This document shows, piece by piece, positions 46,706-64,000 of a DNA stretch of 64,000 bases. The stretch covers positions 16,660-80,659 of the forward strand of contig CAZHAD010000003.1 of the NCBI GenBank assembly GCA_964529965.1, given 5' to 3'. A program made the translations under genes and the position numbers. The notes beneath the pieces were generated by a model, which was not told where the DNA came from, searched no databases, and saw only the letters and a program-made list of their open reading frames with translations. Every line of letters begins with the position of its first letter. Position 1 is the first letter of the stretch. This DNA is from an uncultured Leptospirales bacterium (lineage in GTDB: Bacteria > Spirochaetota > UBA4802 > UBA5550).

Positions 46706-46734
46706 TTGACATTATGGGCATATGCTCATAAATT
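46706..46734 (+). promoter_or_regulatory. Sigma-70-like promoter of the sigma-54 activator gene with a near-identical copy of the 16-bp palindrome
   Basis: TTGACA-17 nt-TAAATT. The spacer carries ATGGGCATATGCTCAT (46714-46729), matching the 41994-42009 palindrome at 15 of 16 positions. Confidence 0.5.
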
Positions 46735-46768
46735 GGCGCATGACGAAGGGAGGAATGCGCCACCCGAT

Positions 46769-48076
46769 ATGACGGAGCCGGAAGAAAAAAACATCATCCT
46801 CGACAGCATCGCCGACGGAATCTTCACCGTTGACATGGATTTCCGCATCACCTCCATGAACCGCGCGGCAGAGGAGATTCTGGGCATCGATGAAAAGGAC
46901 GCCCGGGGAAAGCTCTGTTTCGAGGTCTTCCATGCCAATATCTGCGAGCACTCCTGCGCATTGAAAGAGACGCTGCACACCGGGGATAAAATAATCAACA
47001 AGACGATATATATCGTCAATTCCAGGGGGGAAAAGATCCCGATCAGCGTGAGCACCGCCCTTTTGAAGAACAAAAAGGGAACGATCATCGGCGGGGTGGA
47101 GACCTTCCGCGACCTGACCCCGCTCGAAACCCTGAGGAAGCAGATCGAGCAAAGCTACACCTTCGAGGACATCGTCAGCAAAAATAAGATCATGCGCGGG
47201 CTCTTCGGCATTCTTCCCGACATTGCGGCGAGCGACAGCTCGGTGCTCATCGAGGGCCGAAGCGGAACCGGGAAGGAGCTGATCGCACGGGCGATCCATT
47301 CGTTAAGCAACAGAAGTTCAAGGCCCCTCGCGGTCATAAACTGCGCGGCGGTGCCGGACCCGCTGCTTGAATCCGAGCTTTTCGGGTACAAGGCGGGGGC
47401 GTTCACCGACGCGAAAAAGGACAAGCCGGGGAAAATAGCCCTTGCAGAGGGAGGCACCCTCTTCTTCGACGAAATCGGCGAGATATCGCCCGCCATACAG
47501 GTGAAGCTTCTCCGCTTCATACAGGAGCGCGAATACGAGCCCCTGGGCGGCACGGCGCCGGTAAAATCAAACGTGAGGATAATATCCGCCACGAACAGGG
47601 ACCTCTCCGTCGCGGTGAAGGAGCGCGCGTTCAGGGACGATCTCTTTTACAGGCTCAACGTCTTCAATATAAAGCTCCCTCCCCTTGCGGATCGGAGGGA
47701 GGACATTCCGCTGCTGGTGAAGCATTTCATCGACAAATACAACGTCCTCAAAAACAAGCATATAGAAGGCGCATCAGATGAGGTCATGAAGATACTGATG
47801 AATTACGATTATCCGGGCAACATCCGCGAGCTCGAGAACATCATCGAGCACGCCTTCGTTCTCTGCCGCGAACCGTATATCCGGACCGCCCATCTGCCGG
47901 TCAATCTCTTGCGGGACGAAGCGGCCTCGGAAAAAACGATGAAGCTGGAAAAGATCGAGCGGATATACATTCTACGCGCGCTCGAGAAAAACTCCTGGAA
48001 CAGGTCGAAGGCGGCCGCCGACCTCGGTATTGACTCCTCGACCCTCTGGCGCAAAATGAAAAAATATAAGATCTAG
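46769..48076 (+). CDS. Sigma-54-dependent transcriptional activator (PAS sensor + AAA+ + Fis-type HTH)
   Basis: PAS region ILDSIADGIFTVDMDFRITSMNRAAEEILG. AAA+ motifs GRSGTGKE, GAFTDA and ESELFGY. C-terminal HTH NRSKAAADLGIDSSTLWRKMKKY. The start at ATG 46769 follows GGGAGG; the track start 46706 is the promoter -35. Confidence 0.9.
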   Translation: MTEPEEKNIILDSIADGIFTVDMDFRITSMNRAAEEILGIDEKDARGKLCFEVFHANICEHSCALKETLHTGDKIINKTIYIVNSRGEKIPISVSTALLKNKKGTIIGGVETFRDLTPLETLRKQIEQSYTFEDIVSKNKIMRGLFGILPDIAASDSSVLIEGRSGTGKELIARAIHSLSNRSSRPLAVINCAAVPDPLLESELFGYKAGAFTDAKKDKPGKIALAEGGTLFFDEIGEISPAIQVKLLRFIQEREYEPLGGTAPVKSNVRIISATNRDLSVAVKERAFRDDLFYRLNVFNIKLPPLADRREDIPLLVKHFIDKYNVLKNKHIEGASDEVMKILMNYDYPGNIRELENIIEHAFVLCREPYIRTAHLPVNLLRDEAASEKTMKLEKIERIYILRALEKNSWNRSKAAADLGIDSSTLWRKMKKYKI

Positions 48077-48169
48077 GCATTCCCAACAAAAATATATTTG
48101 CAATTTCAAGTTCCCGGTTTGATAAATACGTACAATCGCGTTTATGATTTTCTTTTACACAGGCACAAC

Positions 48170-49689: not shown

Positions 49690-49704
49690 TGGCACGAATA
49701 TTGC
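49690..49704 (+). promoter_or_regulatory. Sigma-54 (-24/-12) promoter
   Basis: TGGCACgaataTTGC matches the consensus TGGCAC-N5-TTGC exactly. Lies 14 nt upstream of the 49718 start codon. It is the only such match found by eye on either strand. Confidence 0.8.
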
Positions 49705-49717
49705 TTTAATAATTATC

Positions 49718-50137
49718 ATGAAAAGCGAGGTAATAGCGATACCGGCGTTTCAGGAACGGGTATCCCCGCTGCTCGACGTGTCGGACCGATACGCCATATA
49801 CGAAACCGAAAACGGCGAGATAAAACAGAAGGTCGGAATAACGGTCGCATGCGACAGCGATGCGCAGAGGATTGAAAAGCTGAAGGAGATAGGCGTCGAC
49901 ACCATCATCTGCGGAGCGGTGAGCGGCTATATCGCTCGCTTCATAAATGAAAGGGGAATGAGGCTTGTATCGATGATATACGGGCCCCTGGAGGAAATAA
50001 TCGACGCCTACCTGAGAAACGCATTACCCGCATGCCGCACCGGCCCGGTTGCATGCGGGCGCCGGCAAAGAAGGAGGCGCGGCCCGGGAAGCGGCGCGGC
50101 CGCGCGGAGAAATCATACAAAGGAGGAGGAGCGATGA
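49718..50137 (+). CDS. NifX/NifB-C-terminal-like domain protein with an Arg-rich C-terminal tail
   Basis: MKSEVIAIPAFQERVSPLLDVSDRYAIYE...IICGAVSGYIARFINERGMRL. Tail CGRRQRRRRGPGSG. Confidence 0.65.
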   Translation: MKSEVIAIPAFQERVSPLLDVSDRYAIYETENGEIKQKVGITVACDSDAQRIEKLKEIGVDTIICGAVSGYIARFINERGMRLVSMIYGPLEEIIDAYLRNALPACRTGPVACGRRQRRRRGPGSGAAARRNHTKEEER

Positions 50138-50493
50138 AGATAGCGGTGACCTCGACGACAAAAACCATAGACTCGCTCATGGATGAACGGTTCGGAAGGG
50201 CCAGTGGTTTTATTATCTTTGACACCGAAACGAGCGGGTACGAGCATATCGACAACACGCAAAATCTGAATTCGACCCAGGGAGCGGGCATTCAGGCCGC
50301 GAAGTCGGTGATAAACACAGGTGCGACCGTGCTCATCACGGGAAACGTCGGACCCAAGGCGTATGCGGCGCTCGCGGCTGCGGGAGTGGAGGTCTTCCTG
50401 AAAAAAGGGGGAACGGCCATGGATGCGGTCGGGGCCTATCTCTCGGGCGCGCTTGCGAAAGCGGCTGAGGCGAATGCCAAAGCACACTGGTGA
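50134..50493 (+). CDS. NifX/NifB-C-terminal-like domain protein
   Basis: AGGAGGAGGA RBS and an ATGA overlap with the upstream gene. MKIAVTSTTKTIDSLMDERFGRASGFIIFD...VLITGNVGPKAYAALAAAGVEVF. Confidence 0.75.
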   Translation: MKIAVTSTTKTIDSLMDERFGRASGFIIFDTETSGYEHIDNTQNLNSTQGAGIQAAKSVINTGATVLITGNVGPKAYAALAAAGVEVFLKKGGTAMDAVGAYLSGALAKAAEANAKAHW

Positions 50494-50603: not shown

Positions 50604-51446
50604 ATGAAAACTAAAATTACGGTGGTATGCGAGAATAGCGTCGTGGTACCTCTGCCCCTCATCGGAGAGCACGGATTCTCATGCCTGATCGAATCAGAAG
50701 AGGTCACGCTTTTCGATACCGGCCAGGGTCTCGGCATCTTCAACAATCTGAAAAACATGGGAAAAAACATCGACGGAATTAAGCGCGTGGTCCTGAGCCA
50801 CGGGCATTACGACCATACGGGCGGCCTCCTGTCGGTTCTTGAAAGCAGGAACGAGAAGACCCCCGTGTTCGTCCACCCTGACGCCTTCAACGACAAGCGG
50901 GCGGTCATCGCCGCGCCGCAACGAACGATCGACGTCCCCATAGGCATGCGCGCCTCAAAAGAGGCATACGAGCAGGCGGGTGCGGAATTCAATTTTATCA
51001 GGGGATTTGTAAAAATCACCAATTCCATTTCCGCCCTGTCGGAGGTGCAGCGTCCCTCGGGCTGGAAAACCTGGGACAGCCGTCTCAAGCAAAAAGTCAA
51101 CGATATAAATTCCGATGATCCATTCACCGACGACCTCTCGCTTCTGATCACGACAGAATCGGGCCCGGTGGTGCTTCTGGGGTGCGCGCATGCGGGGATC
51201 GTCGAAATCCTTGATGATATTTCAAATAAAACGGGATTCCGTGAATTCCACGCGGTCATCGGCGGCACGCACCTTGAAAGCGCGCCCGAGGACTACATCG
51301 CCAGGACCTTCGACACGCTCAGGAGGTATGCCGTGTGCATAATCGCCGTGTCCCATTGCACCGGATTGAAAACGGCGTGCAGGTTCGCATCTGAGTTTAA
51401 GAGCGAATTCGCTCACGCCTCGGTCGGAAGCGTTTTCGAGTTTTAA
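50604..51446 (+). CDS. MBL-fold metallo-hydrolase (COG1237-like)
   Basis: LSHGHYDHTGGL (HxHxDH) and a later GCAHAG region. 280 aa. Confidence 0.8.
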   Translation: MKTKITVVCENSVVVPLPLIGEHGFSCLIESEEVTLFDTGQGLGIFNNLKNMGKNIDGIKRVVLSHGHYDHTGGLLSVLESRNEKTPVFVHPDAFNDKRAVIAAPQRTIDVPIGMRASKEAYEQAGAEFNFIRGFVKITNSISALSEVQRPSGWKTWDSRLKQKVNDINSDDPFTDDLSLLITTESGPVVLLGCAHAGIVEILDDISNKTGFREFHAVIGGTHLESAPEDYIARTFDTLRRYAVCIIAVSHCTGLKTACRFASEFKSEFAHASVGSVFEF

Positions 51447-51461: not shown

Positions 51462-52322
51462 ATGAACATAACGGTAGCGAGCGGGAAGGGAGGCACGGGA
51501 AAGACGACCGTTGCGCTGTCCCTGGCGGCGTGTTATTCACGCAACGGCATACGCGTCTCCATACTCGACTGCGATGTCGAGGAGCCGAATGTCAATCTCT
51601 TCCTGAAGGCCGAAATAGAGGGCGTCGAAACCTTCAGCATGCCGGTCCCCCGTGTGGAGGAATCACGCTGCACAGGATGCGGGGAGTGCGAGCGGATATG
51701 CGCATTCAACGCCGTCGTGCTTGTAAAGGGAAAGCCGCTGATCTTCCCGGAACTGTGCCATTCATGCGGGGGGTGCGGCCTCGTCTGTCCCGAGGGCGCG
51801 GTCACGGAAACGGCTAAACCGATCGGCGTTATAGAAAGTGGGTACAGAGACGGCGTCAGCTACGCGGGTGGCAGGCTCAATATAGGCGAGCCGATGTCCC
51901 CGCCGCTCATCAGGGAGGTGAAGCGGCGCCATATGGAATCGGACGTCAGGATCATCGATTCGCCTCCGGGTACGTCCTGCCCCGCGGTGGAAGCAATGAA
52001 GGAAAGCGATTACGTTGTGCTGGTGACCGAGCCCACTCCTTTCGGCCTCCACGATCTTACCCTCGCCGCGGGTGCGGTGCGCGCGCTCGGGATCCCGTTC
52101 GGCGTGGTGGTCAACCGGGCGGACATCGGCGACGACTCCTTTATGGAAGAGTGCCTGGCCAGGAGGTATGAGATTATCGCAACCATCCCCCATTCAAGAG
52201 AAATCGCGGAATCATATTCGCGCGGCGACTGCATTTCATATATAATGTACCGCTATCGCGAAGAAATAGAAAAAATCGCGTCACGCGCGGAATACTGCAA
52301 TGCGAGGAACGTTCGGGCATGA
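51462..52322 (+). CDS. MinD/ParA-class P-loop ATPase with inserted 2x[4Fe-4S] ferredoxin module (COG1149-like), type 1
   Basis: SGKGGTGKTT P-loop. CTGCGECERICAFNA and CHSCGGCGLVCPEGA motifs. DSPPGTSCP. Confidence 0.85.
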   Translation: MNITVASGKGGTGKTTVALSLAACYSRNGIRVSILDCDVEEPNVNLFLKAEIEGVETFSMPVPRVEESRCTGCGECERICAFNAVVLVKGKPLIFPELCHSCGGCGLVCPEGAVTETAKPIGVIESGYRDGVSYAGGRLNIGEPMSPPLIREVKRRHMESDVRIIDSPPGTSCPAVEAMKESDYVVLVTEPTPFGLHDLTLAAGAVRALGIPFGVVVNRADIGDDSFMEECLARRYEIIATIPHSREIAESYSRGDCISYIMYRYREEIEKIASRAEYCNARNVRA

Positions 52323-53182
52323 TCCGGGAACTGGTGATCATCAGCGGAAAGGGGGGGACGGGAAAGACGAGCATAGCGGCTTCGTTCGCGGCGCTTGCGA
52401 AAAACAAGGTCATGGCCGACTGCGACGTGGACGCGTCCGACCTTCACCTGGTATTGCAGCCCGGGATCATTCAAACCGAACCCTTTGAAGGCGGCATGAA
52501 GGCATTCATCAACAAGGGCCTGTGCGCCTCATGCGGAGAATGCCTGCGGACATGCCGCTTCGACGCGATCGACGATAATTTTGACGTGGACCAGATATCC
52601 TGCGAGGGGTGCGGAGTGTGCGCGCGTTTCTGCCCCCAGGAGGCGATTGAAATGAGGCGACACGTTTCCGGCAAATGGTTCGTGTCCGATACACGACACG
52701 GGCCGCTCGTGCACGCCCGCCTCGGCATCGCGGAGGGGAATTCGGGCAAGCTCGTCACCCTTATCAAAAAGAAGGCACGTGAGATCGCGGACGAAAGGGG
52801 ACAAGGCCTCGTCATCGTGGACGGCTCGCCGGGCACGGGCTGTCCGGTCATCGCCACGATCTCCGGCGCATCCCTGATCCTGATCGTGACCGAGCCGACC
52901 GTGGCAGGGCTTCACGATCTGCAGAGGGTCTTCGATCTGACCCGCCATTTCCGCGTCAAAGCGGCGGTCTGCGTCAACAAGGCCGACATCAACCCGGACA
53001 AGGCCGCGGAGATAAAGGCGTTTTGCGAACAAAACGCCGTCCCCCTGCTGGCGTCCGTTCCCTATGACACTGAAGTGACGCGGGCGCAGGTGGCCGGAAA
53101 AAGCCTTGTGGAATTTTCCGGGGGAACGGCATCCCGGATATTACGTTCAATGTGGAAAGATATCGAAATATTGTTACATTAG
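52319..53182 (+). CDS. MinD/ParA-class P-loop ATPase with inserted ferredoxin module (COG1149-like), type 2
   Basis: SGKGGTGKTS P-loop. CASCGECLRTCRFDA and CEGCGVCARFCPQEA motifs. DGSPGTGCP. ATGA overlap with the type-1 gene. Confidence 0.85.
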   Translation: MIRELVIISGKGGTGKTSIAASFAALAKNKVMADCDVDASDLHLVLQPGIIQTEPFEGGMKAFINKGLCASCGECLRTCRFDAIDDNFDVDQISCEGCGVCARFCPQEAIEMRRHVSGKWFVSDTRHGPLVHARLGIAEGNSGKLVTLIKKKAREIADERGQGLVIVDGSPGTGCPVIATISGASLILIVTEPTVAGLHDLQRVFDLTRHFRVKAAVCVNKADINPDKAAEIKAFCEQNAVPLLASVPYDTEVTRAQVAGKSLVEFSGGTASRILRSMWKDIEILLH

Positions 53183-53212: not shown

Positions 53213-54091
53213 ATGTTGAAAAAGCAGGCTGAAGAAGCATCAAACAACCAGAACCCTGAGGGACCCGTACATGCGGACAAAGAGGCGGAGGAACGCGCCG
53301 CGCTCAAAAAGAACATGGACAGGATATCCCATAAGATCATAGTTCTTTCCGGCAAGGGCGGCGTGGGCAAAAGCACGGTGGCCGTAAACCTCGCCGTTTC
53401 CCTTGCAGAAAAAAAATTCAAGACCGGGCTGCTCGATATCGACATTCACGGCCCCAGCGTCCCGAAGCTCCTGGGAATCGAAAAGGGCCAGGTGCTCGGA
53501 GCCGGAGACGGAAAACTGCTGCCGGTTGAATACAACGAGCACCTCAAGGTCATGTCAATCGGTTTTCTGCTCCAAGACCACGACGATGCGGTGATCTGGC
53601 GCGGGCCGTTGAAATACGGCGTCATCAGGCAGTTCCTCTCCGACGTGGACTGGGGCGAGCTTGACTATCTCATCATCGATTCCCCGCCGGGGACCGGAGA
53701 CGAGCCCCTCACCATATGCCAGCTCATCGAAAATCCGGACGGGGCGATCGTAGTCACCACGCCGCAGGACGTCGCGCTCATCGATGTCAGAAAATCCATA
53801 AGCTTCTGCAAGCAGCTCAATATGCCGGTCATCGGAGTCATTGAAAACATGAGCGGGTTCGTCTGTCCCCATTGCGGAAAAGAAACCGACATATTCAAGA
53901 ACGGCGGCGGGAAAAAAATGGCCGGCGAAACGAGCGTTCCCTACCTCGGCAGTATACCGATCGAGAGCCGCATCACTGCAAGCGGGGACAGCGGAAAGCC
54001 CTTTTACGATGCCGCCGGAGATATCGCCACCGCGGCCCAGAAAAATTTTTCATCCATCGTGGAAACAATAATAAAAGGAGCAACAAAATGA
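53213..54091 (+). CDS. Mrp/NBP35 (ApbC) family Fe-S cluster carrier ATPase
   Basis: SGKGGVGKSTVAVNLA, DSPPGTGDE, and the CPHCG motif in ENMSGFVCPHCGKETDIF. Confidence 0.9.
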   Translation: MLKKQAEEASNNQNPEGPVHADKEAEERAALKKNMDRISHKIIVLSGKGGVGKSTVAVNLAVSLAEKKFKTGLLDIDIHGPSVPKLLGIEKGQVLGAGDGKLLPVEYNEHLKVMSIGFLLQDHDDAVIWRGPLKYGVIRQFLSDVDWGELDYLIIDSPPGTGDEPLTICQLIENPDGAIVVTTPQDVALIDVRKSISFCKQLNMPVIGVIENMSGFVCPHCGKETDIFKNGGGKKMAGETSVPYLGSIPIESRITASGDSGKPFYDAAGDIATAAQKNFSSIVETIIKGATK

Positions 54092-54426
54092 AAATAGCAC
54101 TGCCCATATCGGATAATAAGCTCTGCATGCACTTCGGACACTGCGAGCGCTTTGAGGTCTTCGATGTTGACGACGACACCAAAGAGATTACCGCGCGCGC
54201 GACGTTCGACGCGCCGCCGCACCAGCCCGGGCTTCTGCCGCGCTGGCTGGCTGAGAAAGGGGTGACGTGCGTAATTGCCGGCGGCATGGGCTCACGCGCC
54301 GTCGACATTTTCAGGGAAAACGGCGTGAGCGTCGTCACGGGAGCGAATGCGGGGGAACCGGATTCGATCGTGAAAGATTTTATCCAGGGCCGGCTCATTG
54401 CTGGCGAGAACGTGTGCGACCATTAA
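54088..54426 (+). CDS. NifX/NifB-C-terminal-like domain protein
   Basis: ATGA overlap with the Mrp gene. MKIALPISDNKLCMHFGHCERFEVFDV...CVIAGGMGSRAVDIFRENGVSVV. Confidence 0.8.
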   Translation: MKIALPISDNKLCMHFGHCERFEVFDVDDDTKEITARATFDAPPHQPGLLPRWLAEKGVTCVIAGGMGSRAVDIFRENGVSVVTGANAGEPDSIVKDFIQGRLIAGENVCDH

Positions 54427-54516: not shown

Positions 54517-54837
54517 ATGGATGAATTTAAATTTAGAAGCGAGGAAATTATCGAGGCGTGCCGCCTCCTGGGAATCGAGGACGGCCATTCCCTTAGAGAT
54601 GTGAAGCGCGCGTATCGCCGTCTGGCCGCGCATCTTCATCCGGATGTCTGCGATGAACCGCTGGACGTGTGCGCAGGGCGCTTCCAGGCCCTCAAAAGGG
54701 CCTATGACCTGCTCGTTCACCACTGCGAAACGCATCCCATTCGTTTTTCAGCGGATAAAAGGCGCAGCGACCCCGAATTTGACCATATCATGAGGTTTTA
54801 CGACGGCTGGCTTGGTGATATTCCAAAAAAACGTTAA
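54517..54837 (+). CDS. J-domain-only protein (DnaJ/HscB-like co-chaperone)
   Basis: LLGIEDGHSLRDVKRAYRRLAAHLHPDV, with the HPD tripeptide. 106 aa. Confidence 0.75.
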   Translation: MDEFKFRSEEIIEACRLLGIEDGHSLRDVKRAYRRLAAHLHPDVCDEPLDVCAGRFQALKRAYDLLVHHCETHPIRFSADKRRSDPEFDHIMRFYDGWLGDIPKKR

Positions 54838-55193: not shown

Positions 55194-55430
55194 ATGCCAA
55201 CGTATGAATATCATTGTACACAATGCGGATATCGTTACGAGCTCTTTCAGAGAATGAGCGACGAGCCGCGTTCTGCGTGCCCCTCATGCGGCGGAGAGGG
55301 GAAGCGATTGATTTCCGCGGGCGCGGGAATCATCGTCAAGGGAAAAAATACCGCGCCGACTCCCTGCGGGAACGACAGCCCATGCTGCGGCAGGGGTGAG
55401 CCGTGCGGGAAGTCTTTTGAGTGCGGATAA
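55194..55430 (+). CDS. FmdB-family zinc-ribbon protein (CxxC_CxxC_SSSS type)
   Basis: [34 protein letters not shown]. Confidence 0.8.
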
Positions 55431-55449
55431 TATATTAAAGGAGGCGCCT

Positions 55450-56175
55450 ATGCCGGAAGAATTCAAACCGGGTTGCGCGAGGCCTACGGGGGGACCCGTG
55501 GGTGAGGAGCCGGCCTCGGCCGGTTCCAAGGAACCGATCCTAATAGAGGAGGAAAAAAAGGTCATGATCCAGGTCGGAAAAAAAGCCCCTGATTTTATTG
55601 CGCCAGCGTATTATCAGGGAAAATTCGTCACTGTCAAGCTTTCGGAATATCTCGGCAAGTGGACCCTGCTCTGCTTCTATCCCGGAGATTTCACTTTCGT
55701 TTGAGCTACTGAAATTTCGGCGGTCGCCGAAAAATATCCCGAGTTCCAGAAGCTCGGAGTCAACATCCTCTCAATGAGCATCGACAGCGTGTTCGTGCAT
55801 AAAATGTGGAACGACAATGAGCTGTCCAAAATGGTGAAAGGAGGCGTGCCATTCCCCATGCTCTCGGACGCGGGAGGCAAGGTGGGATCGGCATACGGCA
55901 TCTACGACGCAGACGCCGGAGTGGAGACCCGGGGCAGGTTCATCATCGATCCCGACGGGATCGTGCAGGGATTCGAGGTCCTCACGCCGCCGGTCGGCCG
56001 CAACGTGGCCGAGTCGATACGGCAGGTGCAGGCCTTCCAGCTAGTCAGAAACAGCAAGGGCGCCGAGGCCACTCCCTCCGGATGGAAACCGGGCAAGAAG
56101 ACCCTGAAGCCGGGCCCGGACCTTGTGGGCAAAGTCTGGGAGGTTTGGAAAACAAGCATGGCCTTCGACGATTAA
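55450..56175 (+). CDS. Selenocysteine-containing peroxiredoxin (PrxU-like); UGA at 55702-55704 read as Sec
   Basis: Track ORFs 55396..55704 and 55774..56175 are in the same frame, separated only by TGA. Joined, they read [23 protein letters not shown], which is the universal FYPxDFTFVCPTE peroxidatic motif. AAGGAGG precedes ATG 55450. An alternative start at 55564 gives [11 protein letters not shown]. Confidence 0.75.
55715..55732 (+). promoter_or_regulatory. Bacterial SECIS-like hairpin downstream of the peroxiredoxin UGA
   Basis: TTTCGGC-GGTC-GCCGAAA is a 7-bp stem with a GGUC apical loop. It starts 10 nt after the UGA. Confidence 0.6.
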
Positions 56176-56426: not shown

Positions 56427-56915
56427 TCAGCTAATAAAAAATCCCCCCGGCTTTTCTTCAATCGATTCCGGCATCCTTTCCACAAAGTCTTTGATTTCGT
56501 CCCTGACGCGCCGGTATATGGCGAGGGCTTCCTCCTGATTCGCCGCGCTTTTCGCAAGCGTCGGGGGATCTTCAAATCCGTGGTGAACCACTTTTGTCCT
56601 TCCGGGGAATACGGGACAATGCTCGGCGGCGTGTCCGCACAACGTGATGACGAAGTCGAATTCTGTTCCGGCAAATTCATCGACGTGCTTCGAGCGCCGT
56701 CCTGAAATGTCGATTCCTATCTCGGCCATTACCTTGACCGCGAGGGGATCGACGCCGCGCGGCTCGGTGCCTGCGGAATACGCCTCAATGACGCCGCTCT
56801 TGAGCGCACCCGCAAGCCCCTCGGCCATCTGGCTACGGCAGGAGTTGCCGGTGCAGAGGAAAAGTATCTTTAATTTATTTTCCGCCAAATTACATCCGCG
56901 TCCCTGTATGATCAT
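56427..56915 (-). CDS. arsC: Arsenate reductase, LMW-PTPase/thioredoxin-coupled type
   Basis: ILFLCTGNSCRSQMAEG (CX5R loop) and the Cys pair in ITLCGHAAEHCP. The start may be downstream of 56915. Confidence 0.85.
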   Translation of the reverse strand: MIIQGRGCNLAENKLKILFLCTGNSCRSQMAEGLAGALKSGVIEAYSAGTEPRGVDPLAVKVMAEIGIDISGRRSKHVDEFAGTEFDFVITLCGHAAEHCPVFPGRTKVVHHGFEDPPTLAKSAANQEEALAIYRRVRDEIKDFVERMPESIEEKPGGFFIS

Positions 56916-57040
56916 TTGAAAAGCCAGTCATATCTCACAACGATGTATATTCACCTGAATTTTCAATCATTAATTCTTCCGTTTCCATAAGTTGAAGTAT
57001 TTTATCTCGGCATTATAACATCGAGGGCGGTATAAACAAA

Positions 57041-57063
57041 GCTCGCGGCAGGATACCGCGAGC
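57041..57063 (-). terminator. Intrinsic terminator after the rhodanese gene
   Basis: The minus strand reads GCTCGCGG-TATCCTG-CCGCGAGC followed by TTTGTTTAT. A perfect TATAAT (57017-57012, minus strand) follows and may be the arsC promoter -10. Confidence 0.55.
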
Positions 57064-57163
57064 ATGTAAGGTATCAACGACCTAGTCGCTTCAACGGCAG
57101 CACAGACGGCCGTGAAGGCACCCGTGACGGTCGTTTCGCTTGGCTCACATTGAGAGCAGGGCC

Positions 57164-57607
57164 TTACTCTACGGGATAACCCTTTCTGGACCAGGCCTGC
57201 CAGCCACCGTCTATATTTTTGATATTCGTGTAGCCCATTCTTGTCAGATTGAAGGCGGTTAGACAGGCACGTCCGCCCGACTTGCAATAAATAATGATTT
57301 GAGCGGCTTTATCAGGGATCTTGCTCGTGACCTTAAACTCGATAAGACCCCTCGGAATATTAATTGCATTAGGCACATGACCGGCCTTATACTCCTTTGG
57401 CTCTCTCACATCGAGAAAAATAACACCGCTCTTGCCGAGCATGGCTTTGGCTTTATCCACAGAAATGGAAACAACTGATTTCTTCGCCTCGTCAACGAGG
57501 TCTTTGGCGGTCATATCCTTGGCTAAAGAAAAATCGACCTTGAAAACGAAAGCAAAGCCAATCATTAAGATCACTGTCAAGCGAAGAAGCAAATTTTTTT
57601 CTCTCAT
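57164..57607 (-). CDS. Periplasmic rhodanese-domain sulfurtransferase
   Basis: Signal peptide MREKNLLLRLTVILMIGFAFVF. Active-site loop YCKSGGRA. Rhodanese core FLDVREPKEYKAGHVPNAINIP. Confidence 0.85.
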   Translation of the reverse strand: MREKNLLLRLTVILMIGFAFVFKVDFSLAKDMTAKDLVDEAKKSVVSISVDKAKAMLGKSGVIFLDVREPKEYKAGHVPNAINIPRGLIEFKVTSKIPDKAAQIIIYCKSGGRACLTAFNLTRMGYTNIKNIDGGWQAWSRKGYPVE

Positions 57608-57703
57608 GAAGCTCTCTCCTTACTTTTAATTTTTAAATAAAACCCGTAGTTTGTAAAAATGTATTGAATCCATCGGAACAACCCACATCCGCTCCACGTT
57701 GAA

Positions 57704-59050
57704 CTAGCGATCCCGCATTTCGGAAATCCTTTCGGGTACCTTGTCAACCGGAACGATAACGCTCTCATTCGCTTTAAGCTCGCTGTCGACGACATCTTTC
57801 TTGAGAAGAAATAACGATTCGTTCCCGTGACACGAATTACAGCTCTTATTCTGCGACGTCTTTCTTCTGATATTATGGGGCGTCGTCATCTTCCACGTGG
57901 GAACACTGTTAAAATTCACTAAGGATCTCTTGGTATAATACTCACAAGTGCTGTCACAGACAGGTATATGCCTGAGGACGGAAAACTTTTCCGGCCTTTT
58001 CTTCGACCGCATCGGATTGAATCCGATCTTAAAGGCCATCCAGGAGGCCTTGCTCTTATAACAGGGAATCCCTCTTGTGTCGATACTCACGTGACAGGAA
58101 GTGCAATTTTTATACGGCTGGGAATGACAGACATAGCAGCTCGCTTTATCCCTGTGAATTGTATGTGTTTTAGCATTCTTAGAGTTACTGTCATAGATCT
58201 TCTTATGGCAATTTATGCACATCGGACCATTATCAACAGCGTATCGATTTTTGTATTCCTTGTCACCGCCATGCATCTCCGTACCGGTATGGCACTTCTC
58301 ACATTTCATAAATTTTTCGTAATGAACATCAGGCTTCATGTCCTTGTTCTCGCCGAAATATTCCTTTCCGATTCTGCTGCCGTGACATGCAGTGCAAACC
58401 AATTTCATGGGAGGCTTTCTCTGAAAGAGATGCCCTTCAAGGAACCCGCCATCAATAGAGTTCGGTCTGCTGATATGACACTGCCCGCAGCTGCTATGGC
58501 ACGTGCTGCAGTGATTCTTGAAGACTTTATCCATTTTTTTCCGAATTGCCTTATCGGAGCCCGCCCTCTTGTAGAGCGCCGTTTTAAAAGGCTTCAGGGT
58601 AACGTGAAGGCTCTTTCCGTAATTCTTTACTATGTCATCGTGACAATCACCGCAGACCTTCCCTGCATCGGGATAGGTCGGGTCTTTAACCACGCCCTTG
58701 TGTGCGGTTTTCCAATTGGGATCCCCCGGGTTGCCTCCATGGCAGGTGTGACACTCGATATTTCCGTGGTTTTCATCCTCAAGAATGTCACTGTCTACGA
58801 AGATCTTTTCATGCGGGGCCAACGGCTCCACCTCACCGCCTCATCCCTCACCCTCATTGGCAGGTTTAATTACCGGCCTTGTTTTGGCGATCTCCCTGGT
58901 TATTTCAATCAACGTGCGTGCATTTGTATGGCACTTGAAGCACTGGCTTGCAGGTACCTCGGCGCCGAAGGGTTCGCCCTGCATGAGAAGCAGACAGGAT
59001 ACAACGAAAAGACAAAATAACCCGGCAATGCCCAAATATTTCCCCATCAA
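57704..59050 (-). CDS. Multihaem c-type cytochrome (10 CxxCH + 1 upstream CxxCH); the signal-peptide segment is joined through an in-frame UGA (58843-58841), so a possible selenoprotein
   Basis: Track ORFs 58841..59050 (signal peptide + CFKCH) and 57704..58831 (GTG start, no signal peptide, 10 CxxCH) are in the same frame. They are separated by TGA-GGC-GGT-GAG. The fused reading is ...PANEGEG-U-GGEVEPLAPHE.... Confidence 0.55.
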
Positions 59051-59259
59051 TACGTTTACCTCATAATAATTGTTAAAGCGTCTGAAAGATGATGAATTAC
59101 TGGATTATTTCAGCTCCAATCAGCCGCCTTGAAGTCCTAATTTAAAATCCATTCCTCAAAAATAAATACCCTTCCCTCCGATCATCATATTACGTTCAGC
59201 CGGATAATTGATAATTGACTGCGGTATTGGTCACTATTCCTTCGGGGTGGAATGCTGCA

Positions 59260-59607
59260 CTATTTAATCCTTTTCGAAAACAGCTTTGATCTCAACTGCA
59301 TTATTTCAATAATACCCTCTCTAATCGTTTTATATCCTTTGATAATTTTAGGATTGGCTATCTGGTAAAAAACATGCTTTCCCTCTTTCCGTTCAATCAG
59401 CACCCCCCATTCCTTCATGAGACGCAGGTGCTGGGATACGTTCGAGGGCGAGATGCCGATTTTTTTAGCTAGTTCCCCAACAGAATATTTATGCCCCTCA
59501 AGGGCCCACAAGATCTGGAGCCTCTTCTCATGTGAAAAAACGCTGCAGATGCCGGCATGTATTTTAAAAATCTCTAAATCTTTATTTTCGTTCATGGCAA
59601 ATTTCAC
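59260..59607 (-). CDS. ArsR/SmtB family transcriptional regulator (lacks the CVC As(III)-binding triad)
   Basis: HEKRLQILWALEGHKYSVGELAKKIGISPSNVSQHLRLMKEWGVL winged HTH. Only one Cys (GICSVF). Confidence 0.85.
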   Translation of the reverse strand: MKFAMNENKDLEIFKIHAGICSVFSHEKRLQILWALEGHKYSVGELAKKIGISPSNVSQHLRLMKEWGVLIERKEGKHVFYQIANPKIIKGYKTIREGIIEIMQLRSKLFSKRIK

Positions 59608-59674: not shown

Positions 59675-60016
59675 TATAGGCTTTCCTATCGAAAAGAACG
59701 GACGCGCTGTGATAAAAAGTAATTCCAAACATGCGGCTGACAAATCGCTTTCCCAAAAGCTCTTACCGGAAAAAAAACGAGCACTATTTGAAATTTAAGC
59801 GCATCAGTATAGCCATGTTCTTCAATAATTACAATCTGTTATATGCAATTATGTTTATATTCGAATATTATAATATATGAATAACTAAATATACTTGTTT
59901 CTGTCAATAAAAAATTCAGACCGGCAATTAATAAAAACGCGGTTTTCGACCGAAAGAATGCCGGCGGCGGCGCAAAAAATCAATATTACAGTCAATCTGC
60001 TCATCAGATTCGTCTT

Positions 60017-60400
60017 CTATAAATTTTCAAGACGGAGCAGGTAAACGGCCACCGCCTTGTGAAGCGTCATGACCGCGAGTATGGCGCAGTGTACGTCCTC
60101 CCCGGATAAGTCACCCAGTGCATCGATTACGCCAGCCGGCGATATCCTGAGCGCTTCCCTGATTGTTCTTCCTACGGCGAACTTTGCCGCCGTCGAACCG
60201 CATCCCACCGATGACATGCAGCCGTCGGTGTAGAATAGCGCCTCCGCAATCCGCCCGTCGGCTATGACGAGATACATCTCCATCGTGTCGCCGCACAGTC
60301 CCTTGATGAAGGCCGAACCGTCGGGATCGTTCATGCGGCCCATGTTGCCGGGAATCTTATGCCGTTCGTTCATTGGAGTCGCCCCGTTATTTCGCTCCAT
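60017..60400 (-). CDS. IscU/NifU N-terminal-like Fe-S scaffold protein
   Basis: Three conserved Cys contexts: GLCGDTMEMYL, FYTDGCMSSVGCGS and DVHCAILAV. Confidence 0.8.
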   Translation of the reverse strand: MERNNGATPMNERHKIPGNMGRMNDPDGSAFIKGLCGDTMEMYLVIADGRIAEALFYTDGCMSSVGCGSTAAKFAVGRTIREALRISPAGVIDALGDLSGEDVHCAILAVMTLHKAVAVYLLRLENL

Positions 60401-60450
60401 AGTGATCTCCCATTGAGAAGAGCGTGATGTGACGCTTAAGATTTCAGCGT

Positions 60451-60987
60451 TTAAACGATTTTGATATGGATATCAAACCCTTCATCGGGGAAGCCGTCCG
60501 CCGCTTTGCCTACGCGGTACACGGTACCGTTTTCCGCGCCCGGCGGTATGGCAACCGATACTTTACTGAAGCCGGAAGGCCCTTCCATGATGAATTCCCG
60601 CTCGGCGCCTATTCGAGCCTCCTCCGGCGAAAGCTCCACCACGCAGGCAAAGACGAAGGCTGCACGCCGGCCGAACTTACCGCGCCTTCCGCAGCACCCG
60701 CGACCCCGGCCATACATGGCCGCCCCCATGCCTCCCGGCCGCATGAAAAAATCCATTCCATAAGGGACCCCGCGGGCGCGCGACAGGTCATAAGCCCTCC
60801 TCTTTAATGGGTCGGCAAGCACATCATAGGCGACGACGATCTCCTTGAATTTCCTTTCGGCCTCCTGGTCTCCTGGATTTTTATCTGGATGATATTTCAG
60901 CGCAAGCCTGCGAAAAGCAGTTTTGATTTCGCCTTGCGAGGCGCCGTCGCTTATATCCAGCGCTGAATAGTAATCGCGAGCATACAT
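60451..60987 (-). CDS. DnaJ-domain protein with a short C-terminal domain
   Basis: [36 protein letters not shown]. Followed by a Gly/Arg-rich linker and a DnaJ-C-like fragment. Confidence 0.8.
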
Positions 60988-60990
60988 TTT

Positions 60991-61460
60991 TTATCTGCCT
61001 TTTTTATATTCGCGTAAGCCTCTCTCCCTGGCCGTTGTTTCGGTAATCGAATCCTGCCATCCGTTACGCGTCGAATCTATCCGATCAAACCTTTTTACAT
61101 AGGGTTTTATATCAATAACGGGAGTGCCGTCAAGGACATCAAGATCGTCACAAGGTACAGCGTGCTGCCCTCGATCCCGAGGAGCTGTACGATGCTCAGG
61201 CCTATCGGGTTCGGCCTTGCGGGTAAGCGTGTCGCGAACAGGCCCCTTTCCGCATCGTCCAGGAAAGGTCTCACCAGCAGCTTGGCGGAACCGGCGCGGT
61301 GGAGATAGTAAATAATATAAATATGGGAAAATTCCTCCAGGTCTTTCAAACCCTCCGCGTATTCAGAAAATATCTCCGCGTATCCGCGGCAGCCGTTCGA
61401 CTAGGCGGGCTGGACCGGCGTTTCAGAAGTATCTGCATGTTCGCTGTGGATGACTCCGAT
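60991..61460 (-). pseudogene. TrmO/TsaA (YaeB) family methyltransferase with three lesions (no start codon, in-frame TAG, frameshift)
   Basis: The reading frame starts at ATC directly after the upstream stop (IGVIHSEHADTSETPVQPA). TAG lies at 61403-61401. Then SNGCRGYAEIFSEYAEGLKDLEEFSHIY...ATRLPARPNPIGLS. A frameshift near 61144-61148 restores LDVLDGTPVIDIKPYVKRFD... up to the stop at 60991-60993. Confidence 0.7.
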
Positions 61461-61463
61461 TTA

Positions 61464-62120
61464 TCAATCGCTGTTTTTCCGTCGCGCCGAATACAATATC
61501 TGCCACTCGTCCTCGACAACACTCACATCGAAATTAAATTCCTTCATGTAAGCGCCAACGATGCTGAAATCGCCCGGTTTCCTCTCATGGGTCCTCCCCT
61601 CAAACCTGTGAACCCGTTCAACGGCGTCGAAACCTTTTTCGGTAAAATCGGAAACGACGATCTGCCTGTCCGCAATCCGCATCATTTCTCTCATAACCTT
61701 GAATAGAAAATCGAGATGATGAAAAGTAAATGCCGATACGACCGCATCAAAGCTCTTATCCGGGTAGCCAAGCTTACCCGCGTCCGCCGTTACGAATTCA
61801 ATCTTATGTAATAGACCGTAATACGCCGCGTTAAGCATCGCCGTTCGATGCTCATTGCCGTCAAGCCCAACAGAAACAATTCTGTCAAAAGACCTGGCCA
61901 GCATAACCGTACAGTACCCCCTCCCGGTACCAATCTCAAGAACCGATTTGTTATGTTCAGACACCTGGTTGACAAATCTCCTCCGCGCCTCTTCCTGATC
62001 GAACCCGTATCTCTTATAAAGAGCCATTCTCTCAGAGAAAAAAGCATGGTTGACGGCAATGTCTTCATCCGAAGCGCCTTCCGCAATATTCAAGTTCGCG
62101 CAATCCCTGTCCGCGTTCAT
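61464..62120 (-). CDS. Class I SAM-dependent methyltransferase
   Basis: Motif I VLEIGTGRGYCT. DAVVSAFTFHHL. Confidence 0.8.
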   Translation of the reverse strand: MNADRDCANLNIAEGASDEDIAVNHAFFSERMALYKRYGFDQEEARRRFVNQVSEHNKSVLEIGTGRGYCTVMLARSFDRIVSVGLDGNEHRTAMLNAAYYGLLHKIEFVTADAGKLGYPDKSFDAVVSAFTFHHLDFLFKVMREMMRIADRQIVVSDFTEKGFDAVERVHRFEGRTHERKPGDFSIVGAYMKEFNFDVSVVEDEWQILYSARRKNSD

Positions 62121-62431
62121 GTTTGATCGTCCTTCTCATTAATCATGGAGGTGATCATGTCCGCCATCCGATGTCCGACAACCGTGACCGTCACGCCGCT
62201 GACCCCCTCCAGTCTCTCAAGGGCCTCCCTGATACGAAATGCCAGCGGCAACACCAGCGGGCACTCGGGAGACGATGGGCGGAACTCCATAGAGACCGCG
62301 CCCCCGCCGTTTATCGACAGGTTTCGTATCAGCCCCATGCTCATCACATCCATGTTGGTGCCTGGGTCGGTTACTTCCTTGAGCCTTTGATGAAGCCGTT
62401 CCATCATATCCATCGCCCACTCACGTTTCAA
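62117..62431 (-). CDS. DUF59 (MIP18/SufT-like) Fe-S assembly domain protein
   Basis: LKEVTDPGTNMDVMSMGLIRNLSI...FRPSSPECPL. 4-nt overlap with the methyltransferase gene. Confidence 0.7.
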   Translation of the reverse strand: MKREWAMDMMERLHQRLKEVTDPGTNMDVMSMGLIRNLSINGGGAVSMEFRPSSPECPLVLPLAFRIREALERLEGVSGVTVTVVGHRMADMITSMINEKDDQT

Positions 62432-63281
62432 GACGGCCCCGTATGCGTTCCCACATTTTTTTCACCTCAGCGGTAACTTCCCCGCAATCGTGTTCCACCA
62501 CGGACTTGCGCAGTATCATGGCCTTGGTTACCTCCGGGTCGTACCGTATCTTCCCCGCGACATCGAGTCCTTTTGCCGCACAGTACTCCTCGATGGTTGA
62601 CGCATTATAGGGATTGATGTCGCACTTGTTGATGCATACCATAACCGGTATGTCAAAGTGCGCTGCCACATCAACCACGCGTTTGAGGTCATGGATGCCC
62701 GAAAGCGTCGGTTCCGTGACGGCCAGAAGAAGATCCGCGCCGGTGATCGAGGCTATTACCGGACAGCCGATACCCGGCGGCCCGTCCGTGATAATCGTGG
62801 GGGTAGCTTCCCCTTCCGCGGCATTTGACGCCAGCTGGCGCACCAGGGTCACCAGTTTGCCGGAGTTCTCTTCTGCGATGCCGAGCCGGGCGTGCGTCAT
62901 GGTCCCGGCTCTGGTATGCGATATGAACCACCTGCCCGAGATGGCGCGCTCCATGGCGATCGCCTCTTCCGGGCAGGTCCGCGCGCAAAAGGCGCACCCC
63001 TCGCAGGACACCGGGTCGACGGTGAAATCGTGTATGGCGTCGAAGCGGCAGAGGCTCTCGCAAAGACCGCAGCGCGTGCATTTCGATTCGTCAATGACGG
63101 CTATCTTTCCCCCGAGAAAATCGCCGGTTTCCACGCTTTCCGGATCCAGTATGAGATGGAGGTCCGCCGCGTCGACGTCGCAGTCGGCGATTACCGGGGC
63201 CTTCGCCAGCATCGAGAGCGCCGCCGTGATGCTGGTTTTCCCTGTCCCACCCTTACCGCTTATGACAGTGAGCTTTTTCAT
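62421..63281 (-). CDS. MinD/ParA-class P-loop ATPase with inserted ferredoxin module (COG1149-like), type 2 paralogue
   Basis: MKKLTVISGKGGTGKTS. CTRCGLCESLCRFDA and CEGCAFCARTCPEEA motifs. DGPPGIGCP. Colinear with 52319..53182. Confidence 0.85.
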   Translation of the reverse strand: MKKLTVISGKGGTGKTSITAALSMLAKAPVIADCDVDAADLHLILDPESVETGDFLGGKIAVIDESKCTRCGLCESLCRFDAIHDFTVDPVSCEGCAFCARTCPEEAIAMERAISGRWFISHTRAGTMTHARLGIAEENSGKLVTLVRQLASNAAEGEATPTIITDGPPGIGCPVIASITGADLLLAVTEPTLSGIHDLKRVVDVAAHFDIPVMVCINKCDINPYNASTIEEYCAAKGLDVAGKIRYDPEVTKAMILRKSVVEHDCGEVTAEVKKMWERIRGRLET

Positions 63282-64000
63282 ATCTGGCATACTCCGCTTT
63301 GATGTGGTCAAACAGGGACTCATAGCGCGCACGGTATTCCCGGAGGTTCTCAAGAATGAGCATCCCCGCCGAGTACTGCTCCGCGATACGACGGTCCCAG
63401 GGAAAAGACATCAATATCGGAATTTTTTCCTCTTCGCAGTAGTTGCTCACCTCGTTATCGCCGATATTGCATAAATTTATTACCACGCCCATTGGAACGT
63501 TGAGTTTCCTGACCATTTCAACCGCGAGCTTTAAATCGTTGAGGCCGAAAGGCGTCGGTTCCGTCACCAAAACGCAGAAATCGGCACCCTTCACGGTTTC
63601 CACCACCGGGCAGGATGTTCCGGGCGGCGAGTCCAAGATGACCGTACGCCCGGACTCGATGCGATCCTTCACCCTACGTATGAGAGGTGGCGCCATGGGC
63701 TCCCCGACGTTCAGGACGCCGTGAACGAAGGATAGACCACCAGTTGATCCTGTTTCAATGACGCCTATCTCGCGATCCTCCTCGCGGATGGCCTTTTCCG
63801 GGCAGAAATACTCACATGCGCCGCACCCGTGGCAGAGCTCCGGGAATACCATGACGCGCTTCTTTATAACGACGATCGCGCTGAACTCGCAAACCTCGCC
63901 GCACTTCCCGCAATGGGTGCACCGCGATTCATCGACCACGGGCACAGGAAGCCCTACTGTTTCCCTTTTATAAATAACCGGCTTCAAGAACAGATGTGTG
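63253..64000 (-). CDS. MinD/ParA-class P-loop ATPase with inserted ferredoxin module (COG1149-like), type 1 paralogue; N-terminus beyond the window
   Basis: The frame stays open to the window edge (THLFLKPVIYK...). CTHCGKCGEVCEFSA and CHGCGACEYFCPEKA motifs. DSPPGTSCP. Colinear with 51462..52322. Confidence 0.85.
   Translation of the reverse strand, partial: THLFLKPVIYKRETVGLPVPVVDESRCTHCGKCGEVCEFSAIVVIKKRVMVFPELCHGCGACEYFCPEKAIREEDREIGVIETGSTGGLSFVHGVLNVGEPMAPPLIRRVKDRIESGRTVILDSPPGTSCPVVETVKGADFCVLVTEPTPFGLNDLKLAVEMVRKLNVPMGVVINLCNIGDNEVSNYCEEEKIPILMSFPWDRRIAEQYSAGMLILENLREYRARYESLFDHIKAEYARYEKAHCHKR

Follow-up and report, generated by a model that had tools for sequence, protein, structure and literature searches.

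The stretch of DNA analysed here (64 kb, hereafter the window) comes from an uncultured Leptospirales bacterium and holds two loci that each encode a pair of P-loop ATPases with ferredoxin inserts, one of type 1 and one of type 2: pair A at 51462-53182 (locus 1) and pair B within 60017-64000 (locus 2). Locus 2, our main subject, is probably a second, Fur-controlled module of the orange protein (ORP) type, one that would serve the ATP- and electron-driven handling of iron-sulfur (Fe-S) or metal-sulfide species. The ORP-type system is already known, its mechanism still open; what is new is the locus 2 variant, in which an ORP-type pair is associated with Fur boxes and with DUF59, NifU_N, J-domain, DUF5320 and zinc-ribbon proteins, associations of which we could find no description in the searchable literature.

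The function of the orange protein complex has been a question since 2011, with cell division as the published guess, and how strict anaerobes, many of which are without cysteine desulfurases, build, store and mobilise Fe-S clusters is poorly understood. The operon and its relatives tie an Orp3/4-type pair to an IscU-type scaffold, a DUF59 adaptor, a J-protein, IssA-like carriers, Gly/Arg-rich partners and Fur control. Seen across phyla, the pattern lends the ORP problem a hypothesis that can be tested concretely: an iron-regulated, ATP- and ferredoxin-dependent handling of Fe-S species.

The locus 2 operon and its predicted Fur boxes

Gene calls are based on a listing of open reading frames (ORFs) and on profile scans (Pfam, NCBIfam), and pairwise identities on BLASTP. 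An earlier note on this DNA had read, on the minus strand, the order type-1 ATPase, type-2 ATPase, DUF59 protein, methyltransferase, decayed TrmO gene, J-protein and NifU_N scaffold, and ORFs and profiles bear out all seven at the positions it gave (Table 1). The type-2B and type-1B genes overlap by 29 nt, and the type-1B reading frame is open to base 64000. We extended the sequence with two near-identical public contigs: L001 (Logan), which has one difference from the window in 4339 bases and whose sample may or may not be the window's own, and L002, which is 99.6% identical to the window over 1890 bases and adds 3.2 kb upstream. In both, the full type-1B protein has 287 aa, and from the two together the operon reads three Fur boxes, DUF5320, NifX/IssA-like carrier, ferredoxin, zinc-ribbon protein, type-1, type-2, DUF59, methyltransferase, TrmO pseudogene, J-protein and NifU_N, the four genes upstream of type-1 lying on the same strand in L002 and the last and smallest of them abutting type-1. 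The stretch 60017-64000 covers the 3' two-thirds of this operon, which has 11 genes and a TrmO pseudogene. The earlier note had allowed that sequence beyond 64000 might reveal a known pathway that explains these genes in full; the NifX-like, DUF5320 and ferredoxin genes found there mark an ORP-type cluster, which gives the finding a name without fully explaining it.

Table 1. Features of the two loci, with zinc-ribbon genes of related contigs (coordinates are those of the window unless a contig is named)
Feature	Position	Strand	Evidence or remark
Locus 2
Type-1 ATPase B, Orp3/4-like, MinD-type P-loop with 2x[4Fe-4S] ferredoxin insert	63253..64000	-	5'-truncated by window end; Pfam Fer4 and partial ParA
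Type-2 ATPase B, 286 aa	62421..63281	-	Pfam CbiA and Fer4
DUF59 / FeS_assembly_P protein, 96 aa from the gene caller's start	62117..62431	-	PF01883, 1.1e-15
Class I S-adenosylmethionine (SAM)-dependent methyltransferase, 218 aa	61464..62120	-	Methyltransf_11, 7e-15
TrmO-like pseudogene	about 60988..61463	-	PF01980 (TrmO_N) on 80-aa fragment
J-domain protein, 178 aa	60451..60987	-	PF00226, 1e-25
NifU_N / IscU-like scaffold, 127 aa	60017..60400	-	PF01592, 7e-19
Locus 1
OrpR-like sigma-54 activator	46706..48076	+	Pfam PAS, Sigma54_activat, HTH_8
Sigma-54 promoter, TGGCACGAATATTGC	49690..49704	+	exact TGGCAC-N5-TTGC
Two NifX/Orp-like Nitro_FeMo-Co genes	49718..50493	+	PF02579, 2e-7 and 9e-22
Metallo-beta-lactamase-fold protein	50604..51446	+	Pfam Lactamase_B
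Type-1A and type-2A ATPase pair	51462..53182	+	Pfam; same synteny in L088
Split MrpORP: Mrp/NBP35 ATPase (53213-54091) and Di-Nase domain (54085-54426), two overlapping genes	53213..54426	+	NF041136, PF02579
Short J-domain protein	54517..54837	+	PF00226, 4.5e-10
Related contigs
Zinc-ribbon family member	L002 about 2981-3202	+	just past window base 64000
Zinc-ribbon family member	L003 9770-9994
Zinc-ribbon family member	L007 9650-9880

The upstream genes encode a DUF5320 protein with a Gly/Arg/aromatic-rich head followed by a coiled coil, a NifX/IssA-like carrier of 123 aa (PF02579, Nitro_FeMo-Co), a 2x[4Fe-4S] ferredoxin, and a small protein of about 73 aa whose Gly/Arg-rich N-terminus precedes a four-Cys ribbon (…CICPSCG…CPKCGTPMQRK) and which is also present in relatives. 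The 76-aa ORF that JGI called upstream of type-1B is a misframed reading; what is conserved there is the Gly/Arg-rich zinc-ribbon protein. At the other end of the operon, the NifU_N protein retains the Cys/Asp/His ligands of a scaffold (GLCGD, GCGS, HC) and has LSGEDV at the place of the IscU LPPVK; it falls below the cut-offs of the IscU, NifU and SufU equivalogs (46.5 bits on iscU, against a cut-off of 192). The J-protein has the HPD motif, a Gly/Arg-rich linker with a CC pair and a DnaJ-C-like tail, and NCBIfam DnaJ models match it better than hscB, which gives 21 bits against a cut-off of 46.75. The TrmO remnant, 70% identical (tblastn) to an intact orthologue of 167 aa in L003, has lost its start and carries an in-frame stop and a frameshift, and the same lesions are present in L001, the contig of uncertain sample. 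Neither a cysteine desulfurase nor an HscA gene is found in the operon.

The 360-bp leader in front of DUF5320 contains three copies of a 21-nt palindrome, each with 2-4 mismatches to the Fur-box consensus; there is no Fur-box match anywhere in the 64-kb window. FUR genes with Fur boxes in front of them head such clusters in spirochaete relatives (L003-L006) and in five metagenome-assembled genomes (MAGs) of other lineages (L020, L052, L071, L079, L080). These predicted boxes suggest that the operon is induced by iron limitation, and locus 2 is apparently switched by iron. Co-regulation with locus 1 through a sigma-54 promoter was also considered; no such promoter precedes locus 2, and neither Mrp nor OrpR is encoded in it, the L002 extension included. 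An intrinsic terminator 3' of NifU_N was sought as the end of the operon, and nothing convincing was found there.

Downstream of the operon, the minus-strand genes at 56427-59607 look like a separate set: an ArsR-family regulator, a small CxxCH protein, a multihaem cytochrome c (375 aa), a secreted rhodanese and a low-molecular-weight phosphatase/ArsC-like protein. Relatives carry a ZIP transporter in this place.

Two old pairs of ATPases, each a probable working unit

The earlier note judged the two pairs roughly half identical by eye, and computation agrees: type-1A and type-1B are 50% identical over 236 aa and type-2A and type-2B 52% over 281 aa, with type-1 preceding type-2 at both loci as it had said. 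Identity across types is 30-32% at these loci. The same pattern holds in the 78 pairs that we used for pair statistics and motif alignment, where mean identity is 53% within type-1, 55% within type-2 and 30% between types. In both types the Walker A sequence SGKGGTGKT with its signature lysine, the eight Cys of the ferredoxin insert and one switch-II Cys (PG-x-x-CP) are invariant in these pairs, and the Walker B aspartate is kept; the Cys of a 'DCD' motif is kept in 100% of type-1 and 91% of type-2 sequences.

We rejected the assignment of these ATPases to Mrp/NBP35, which the earlier note had made. Outside the insert only the 'DCD' and switch-II 'CP' Cys are conserved and the CXXC motif of Mrp/NBP35/ApbC is not found; PF10609 matches are partial, at 32-61 bits versus 339 bits for the true Mrp of locus 1, and the NCBIfam MrpORP model gives 32-50 bits against a cut-off of 450. 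An AF2 model of type-1B (pLDDT 93) finds archaeal MinD, ApbC, ATPase-type HypB, Cfd1 and NifH in Foldseek. A PDB sequence search brought up no solved structure of the family, only MinD for the P-loop part and polyferredoxins for the insert. The paired ATPases match Desulfovibrio Orp3/Orp4 in architecture and gene context.

A pattern scan with one genome per species gave at least 589 relatives, of which the best 80 loci, with 79 species counted, form our census. Many phyla of anaerobes are represented in it: among the bacteria Dehalococcoidia, Planctomycetota, Omnitrophota, Clostridia, Desulfobacterota, Ignavibacteria and Zixibacteria, and besides them several archaeal lineages. In 76 of the 79 species the two genes share a strand with type-1 upstream of type-2, and in 47 they abut directly. 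In a mirror-tree comparison the partner distances of type-1 and type-2 correlate with r = 0.65, a value reached by 0 of 999 Mantel permutations, and the type-1 | type-2 split is recovered in 50 of 50 bootstraps. Moreover, a search of 1.84 billion representative proteins gave 668 clusters at E <= 1e-30, and among the best 150, which we inspected, 31 are natural fusions of about 600 aa (P0241-P0327), all 31 with a type-1 N-half and a type-2 C-half. In D. vulgaris, Orp3 co-purifies with Orp4 and Orp8 (PMC6345978).

Because order is conserved, the partners co-evolve and the fusions run type-1 then type-2, the conserved pair very probably forms a heterodimer, whose working unit is the one that the natural fusions define. 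The results speak for an ATP-dependent heterodimer of 1:1 composition, though not for any particular content of its interface.

The earlier note had proposed the heterodimer, as an obligate one duplicated as a unit, and it is the duplication within this genome that the trees contradict. Pairs A and B come out as sisters in 2 of 50 bootstraps for type-1 and in 0 of 50 for type-2. Pair B groups with spirochaete relatives in 49/50 and 48/50 bootstraps and then, in both trees, with Desulfobacterota MAGs, and its identity is 61-67% to Desulfobacterota homologues as against 50-52% to pair A; a recent duplication was therefore rejected. The nearest named relatives of type-2A are nearly all Spirochaetota, at 60-73% identity. 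Since the pairs are not sisters and type-2A has Spirochaetota relatives, we read A and B from the trees as old paralogous lineages with no local duplication, pair A as the native spirochaete lineage, and pair B as probably acquired long ago. No compositional signal of a recent transfer is seen: locus 2 has no GC anomaly, with 50-57% GC in the 1-kb bins of 60000-64000 and 54-60% at locus 1. The earlier note had also considered that the pairs might be unrelated acquisitions with no conserved pairing; the lineages are old paralogues, and the pairing is conserved in 76 of the 79 census species. What the trees do support is a pair inherited and transferred as one unit.

Locus 1 is an orp cluster of the D. 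vulgaris kind because of its MrpORP score, the CMHFGHCE motif, the Cys spacing of its OrpR and a unique, perfect sigma-54 promoter. The Mrp at 53213-54091 scores 392 bits on the NF041136 MrpORP model over profile positions 1-251 of 365, which are the ATPase part, and has the CPHC motif. The Di-Nase gene at 54085-54426 starts with CMHFGHCE, and a CXHFGHCE motif has been described for the MrpORP Di-Nase domain (PMC6345978); MrpORP is a two-domain protein in Desulfovibrio and two overlapping genes here. The PAS domain of the activator at 46706-48076 has C-x8-C-x3-C, the spacing of C52, C61 and C65 in D. vulgaris OrpR, where these Cys are needed for redox sensing and a [4Fe-4S] cluster is bound in the PAS domain. 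An exact TGGCAC-N5-TTGC site occurs once in the window, its end lying 13 nt upstream of the first NifX-like gene of the locus. The J-domains of the J-proteins of the two loci are 45% identical. The same layout is found in L088, a Spirochaetota MAG reached through one of the closest type-2A relatives.

Several further observations concern locus 1. Its first NifX-like protein (49718-50137, +) closes with a cationic tail (…CGRRQRRRRGPGSG…), encoded across the start of the next gene, that recalls the tails of the IssA type. An HdrD-like protein with CCG and 4Fe-4S dicluster domains (48098-49375, +) lies between the OrpR gene and the sigma-54 promoter and is not at this place in L088; L088 has a DUF5320 gene, and locus 1 of the window organism has none. 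Beyond the cluster, a peroxiredoxin gene (AhpC-TSA, 55396-56175, +) has an in-frame TGA at 55702-55704, exactly at the peroxidatic Cys (FTFV-U-ATE), and the gene caller splits its orthologue in L003 in the same way; this split gene probably encodes a selenocysteine peroxiredoxin.

Relatives, recurrent neighbours and Gly/Arg-rich small proteins

The closest relatives of locus 2 are 74-80% identical, and those with names are labelled 'Spirochaetes/Spirochaetota bacterium'. Their order is (FUR)-DUF5320-NifX-ferredoxin-small gene-type 1-type 2-DUF59-(methyltransferase-TrmO)-J-protein-NifU_N-(ZIP), and their TrmO is intact. DUF59 directly follows type-2 in L001-L008, L015 and L089. Two members of the pair-B clade, L007 (labelled Thermodesulfobacteriota) and L089 (labelled 'Pseudomonadota'), have the pair within a single large cluster, the same in both: OrpR-NifX-Mrp-NifX-DUF5320-NifX-small gene-type 1-type 2-DUF59-Zn_ribbon_8-NifU_N, sometimes followed by DnaJ. 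These relatives of pair B have the MrpORP and OrpR/sigma-54 control that in our organism are found at locus 1. Given this single-cluster arrangement, locus 2 is therefore the ATPase-DUF59-scaffold half of an ORP-type cluster, parted from OrpR and Mrp and placed under Fur-type operators.

To take the census, the window's proteins were searched against six-frame ORFs of the census loci, and matches on the same strand within 8 kb were counted as neighbours. NifX-like carriers accompany the pair in 85%, Mrp in 57%, DUF5320 in 46%, NifU_N in 33%, metallo-beta-lactamase-fold proteins in 29% and ferredoxin in 22%; less frequent are the J-protein (20%), methyltransferase (15%), OrpR (13%), FUR (9%), TrmO (8%), DUF59 (4%) and ZIP (4%). 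Matches on the opposite strand, which served as an internal control, are almost absent, which speaks against co-location by chance. In several Planctomycetota a J-protein gene is placed between type-1 and type-2, as is a methyltransferase gene in three loci. DUF134, Zn_ribbon_8, radical SAM, ARMT1-like, DUF169, OsmC, DUF364/DUF4213 and CGGC proteins also recur nearby; no cysteine desulfurase family is among the recurrent census neighbours. A literature search on COG1149, DUF5320 or DUF134 together with NifX-like proteins returned nothing relevant. The iron-sulfur theme seen in the earlier note holds for both the domain content and these neighbours, and the gene context as a whole points to metal-sulfur cluster handling rather than cell division.

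The zinc-ribbon protein of the operon belongs to a family of about 70-90 aa (MPRGDGTGP…GRG…C[VI]CPxCG…CPKCG) that is found in 31 of 77 loci, mostly just before type-1, and for which neither Pfam nor NCBIfam has a model. Its N-terminus resembles the first half of DUF5320, with a match below threshold. Gly/Arg-rich small ORFs lie on the cluster strand in 60 of 79 loci, compared with 9 of 79 on the opposite strand, which flags an abundant family of small proteins that gene callers miss or misframe. In composition these Gly/Arg-rich partners are like the thioferrate-binding tail of IssA (PMC5524996): among the 82 residues of the DUF5320 head are 23 Gly, 9 Arg+Lys+His and 16 aromatics, and among 70 of the IssA tail 15 Gly, 7 cationic residues and 14 aromatics. 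Fused forms, a NifX domain plus tail, are present in related clusters. DUF134, a predicted DNA-binding family, recurs nearby (for example at 10863-11297 of L073) and is fused to the zinc-ribbon module in some archaea.

We set aside a reading of TrmO, the methyltransferase and RGG-like repeats as RNA modification, because the TrmO gene has decayed in this genome and neither gene is more than a minority neighbour.

Proposed function and comparison with known systems

The sequences themselves show the content of the loci, its conservation, the pairing and fusions of the ATPases, the motifs and the regulatory sites; what we infer concerns the chemistry of the heterodimer, its substrate and the direction of flow. 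Type-1 and type-2 would pair 1:1 into an ATP-sandwich heterodimer of the MinD/Mrp/NifH (SIMIBI) class, to which each subunit would bring a ferredoxin insert with two clusters, placed after switch I, and a single invariant Cys at switch II. The heterodimer would spend ATP, and electrons from the ferredoxin of the operon passed through the inserts, to make, reduce or pass on an Fe-S or metal-sulfide species. This species may reside on the NifX/IssA-like carrier and on the cationic Gly/Arg-rich proteins. NifU_N as the scaffold may supply clusters or pass them on, the J-protein may recruit DnaK for cluster release, and the DUF59 protein may act as an adaptor that both loads the machine and sends clusters onward. 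Locus 1 would be the native version with MrpORP, under redox control by OrpR/sigma-54, and locus 2 a version under iron control by Fur boxes that comes from a Desulfobacterota-related lineage. Published work fits such a scheme in part: D. vulgaris Orp3 and Orp4 are two MinD-like proteins with ferredoxin motifs, Orp8 is the orange protein, and MrpORP transfers Fe-S clusters to the Orp3/Orp4/Orp8 complex (PMC6345978).

Several points weigh against this proposal. The native orange protein binds a Mo-Cu sulfide cluster and no Fe-S cluster (PMC6345978), and the published ORP work proposes a role in cell division (PMC6345978, PMC3897727). With one switch-II Cys per subunit, a bridging [4Fe-4S] cluster of the NifH or Mrp kind, which takes two Cys per subunit, is not obviously possible. 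DUF59 and TrmO are rare in the census and TrmO is decayed here, so parts of the operon are dispensable accessories. The census frequencies come from single-sequence phmmer searches, crude ORF calls and truncated contigs. Finally, the Fur-box call uses the E. coli consensus, and the regulator could be a Zur- or PerR-type paralogue.

A broader version of this idea, doubtful but in our opinion worth stating, is that the ORP-type neighbourhood is one widespread, anaerobe-specific pathway that stores and then mobilises iron and sulfide, as a thioferrate-like polymer on cationic Gly/Arg-rich proteins, with an ATP-costly reductive release into [4Fe-4S] clusters for which no cysteine desulfurase would be needed. 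Its components could be the ferredoxin-ATPase heterodimer, NifX/IssA-like carriers, DUF5320, zinc-ribbon proteins, Mrp, NifU_N, DUF59 and the J-protein. We suggest it because the composition of the DUF5320 head resembles that of the IssA tail. IssA, a protein of the IPR003731 fold, stores iron and sulfide as anionic thioferrate by means of a cationic Gly/aromatic-rich tail and can rebuild [4Fe-4S] ferredoxin (PMC5524996). IssA homologues increase in pyrite-grown Methanococcus voltae. If true, such a pathway would bring under one heading the orange protein complex of Desulfovibrio, IssA of Pyrococcus and its homologues in pyrite-grown methanogens, and the window organism would have two differently wired copies of it, one redox- and one iron-controlled.

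The earlier note preferred to see in the two loci a bacterial counterpart of cytosolic iron-sulfur assembly (CIA), or a hybrid of it with the iron-sulfur cluster (ISC) system: a general pathway in which Mrp/NBP35-type ATPases and DUF59 mature many cytosolic Fe-S proteins and IscU and a J-protein carry out transfer. DUF59, NifU_N, a J-protein and, at locus 1, a true Mrp are all present, and MrpORP transfers clusters to aconitase in vitro (PMC6345978). We nevertheless consider this reading unlikely; the CIA and ISC analogies come down to two shared domain families, and that to CIA is superficial. The paired ATPases lack CXXC and match PF10609 only partially; equivalents of Nar1, Cia1 and Met18, an HscB-type co-chaperone (the hscB score being less than half its cut-off) and a cysteine desulfurase are absent from either locus and from the recurrent neighbours; NifU_N has LSGEDV for LPPVK; and the most constant partners, the NifX-like carriers, have no counterpart in CIA or ISC.

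That the module instead handles thiometallates or heterometal sulfide clusters of Mo, W or Cu, for detoxification, storage or cofactor supply in sulfidic habitats, would agree with the homology of the NifX-like carriers to the orange protein, which holds [S2MoS2CuS2MoS2] (PMC6345978), and with the ZIP transporters and DUF364/DUF4213 'heavy-metal chelation' genes that recur nearby. This strikes us as improbable, given that no molybdate/tungstate transporter or molybdopterin genes are found in the loci examined, that the Fur boxes point to iron, and that NifU_N, Mrp and DUF59 are iron-sulfur-specific families.

We give a similarly low probability to the pair being an ATP-dependent low-potential reductase like NifH, BchL or CfbC, acting on some enzyme or cofactor that the methyltransferase and the TrmO-like protein also modify. 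NifH is among the matches of the SIMIBI fold, the ferredoxin insert follows switch I on what NifH numbering suggests to be the partner-docking face, the operon has a dedicated ferredoxin gene, and radical SAM and methyltransferase genes recur in the neighbourhood; but no conserved NifD/K-like or BchN/B-like catalytic partner lies beside the pair, TrmO is decayed here, and the methyltransferase and TrmO occur in a minority of clusters.

A MinD-like spatial regulator, which would position the septum or act in division through a C-terminal amphipathic helix and use its Fe-S domains only to sense redox, draws on archaeal MinD as the closest fold and on the division role, the MinD-like C-terminal helices of Orp3/Orp4 and the polar MrpORP of the literature (PMC6345978, PMC3897727), but is very improbable beside conserved neighbours that are metal or cluster proteins (NifX-like, Mrp, NifU_N, DUF59, ferredoxin, Fur, ZIP, DUF364) and none of them division proteins, clusters that also occur in archaea, and a control by Fur boxes that would be unexpected for a division system.

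Our preferred reading remains a second ORP-type module under apparent iron control. The D. vulgaris ORP complex consists of Orp3 (DVU2103), Orp4 (DVU2104), Orp5, Orp8, MrpORP (DVU2109) and OrpR (DVU2106). Both loci share with it two adjacent paralogous MinD-like ATPases, each with two [4Fe-4S] motifs, partners of the NifX/Di-Nase fold and a restriction to anaerobes; OrpR, the sigma-54 promoter and MrpORP are shared by locus 1 only. Locus 2 differs in having neither OrpR nor Mrp and in having Fur boxes in place of the sigma-54 promoter, and it adds DUF5320, ferredoxin, zinc-ribbon, DUF59, methyltransferase, TrmO pseudogene, J-protein and NifU_N.

With Mrp/NBP35/ApbC/Cfd1 the paired ATPases share the SIMIBI fold, the deviant Walker A (GKGGhGK[ST]) with its signature lysine and a genomic link to DUF59, a domain known from DUF59-Mrp fusions and from CIA2. 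They differ from these proteins in the missing CXXC bridging motif, in the ferredoxin insert and in being an obligate heteropair of two old paralogues. Of a eukaryote-type CIA system only the DUF59 and Mrp families are present, in different loci, and no hydrogenase-like or WD40 genes are found in the loci or among the recurrent neighbours.

The arrangement of NifH with NifX/NafY/NifB-C is similar in that an ATP-dependent dimeric SIMIBI Fe-S protein stands beside small IPR003731 carriers and a NifU-type scaffold. The operon has no NifEN/DK-like partner and no NifB radical-SAM core, however, and the clusters of the pair are predicted to sit in an inserted ferredoxin domain, with no equivalent of the Cys97/Cys132 bridge of NifH. 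Pyrococcus furiosus IssA has in common with the module the IPR003731/Nitro_FeMo-Co domain and cationic, Gly-/aromatic-rich disordered sequence, but in the module such tail-like stretches are spread over polypeptides of their own (DUF5320, the zinc-ribbon protein and the linker of the J-protein), which are putative thioferrate binders. As in the ISC system (IscU/HscB/HscA), a NifU_N scaffold with Cys/Asp/His ligands adjoins a J-protein bearing HPD; unlike in that system, LPPVK is missing, the J-protein is DnaJ/CbpA-like rather than HscB-like, and genes for IscS and HscA are missing from the operon. Its architecture, the pairing of its ATPases and its carrier partner place locus 2 in the ORP-type neighbourhood; it falls outside Mrp/NBP35 and CIA and, with no HscB-type co-chaperone or IscS in the operon, outside canonical ISC.

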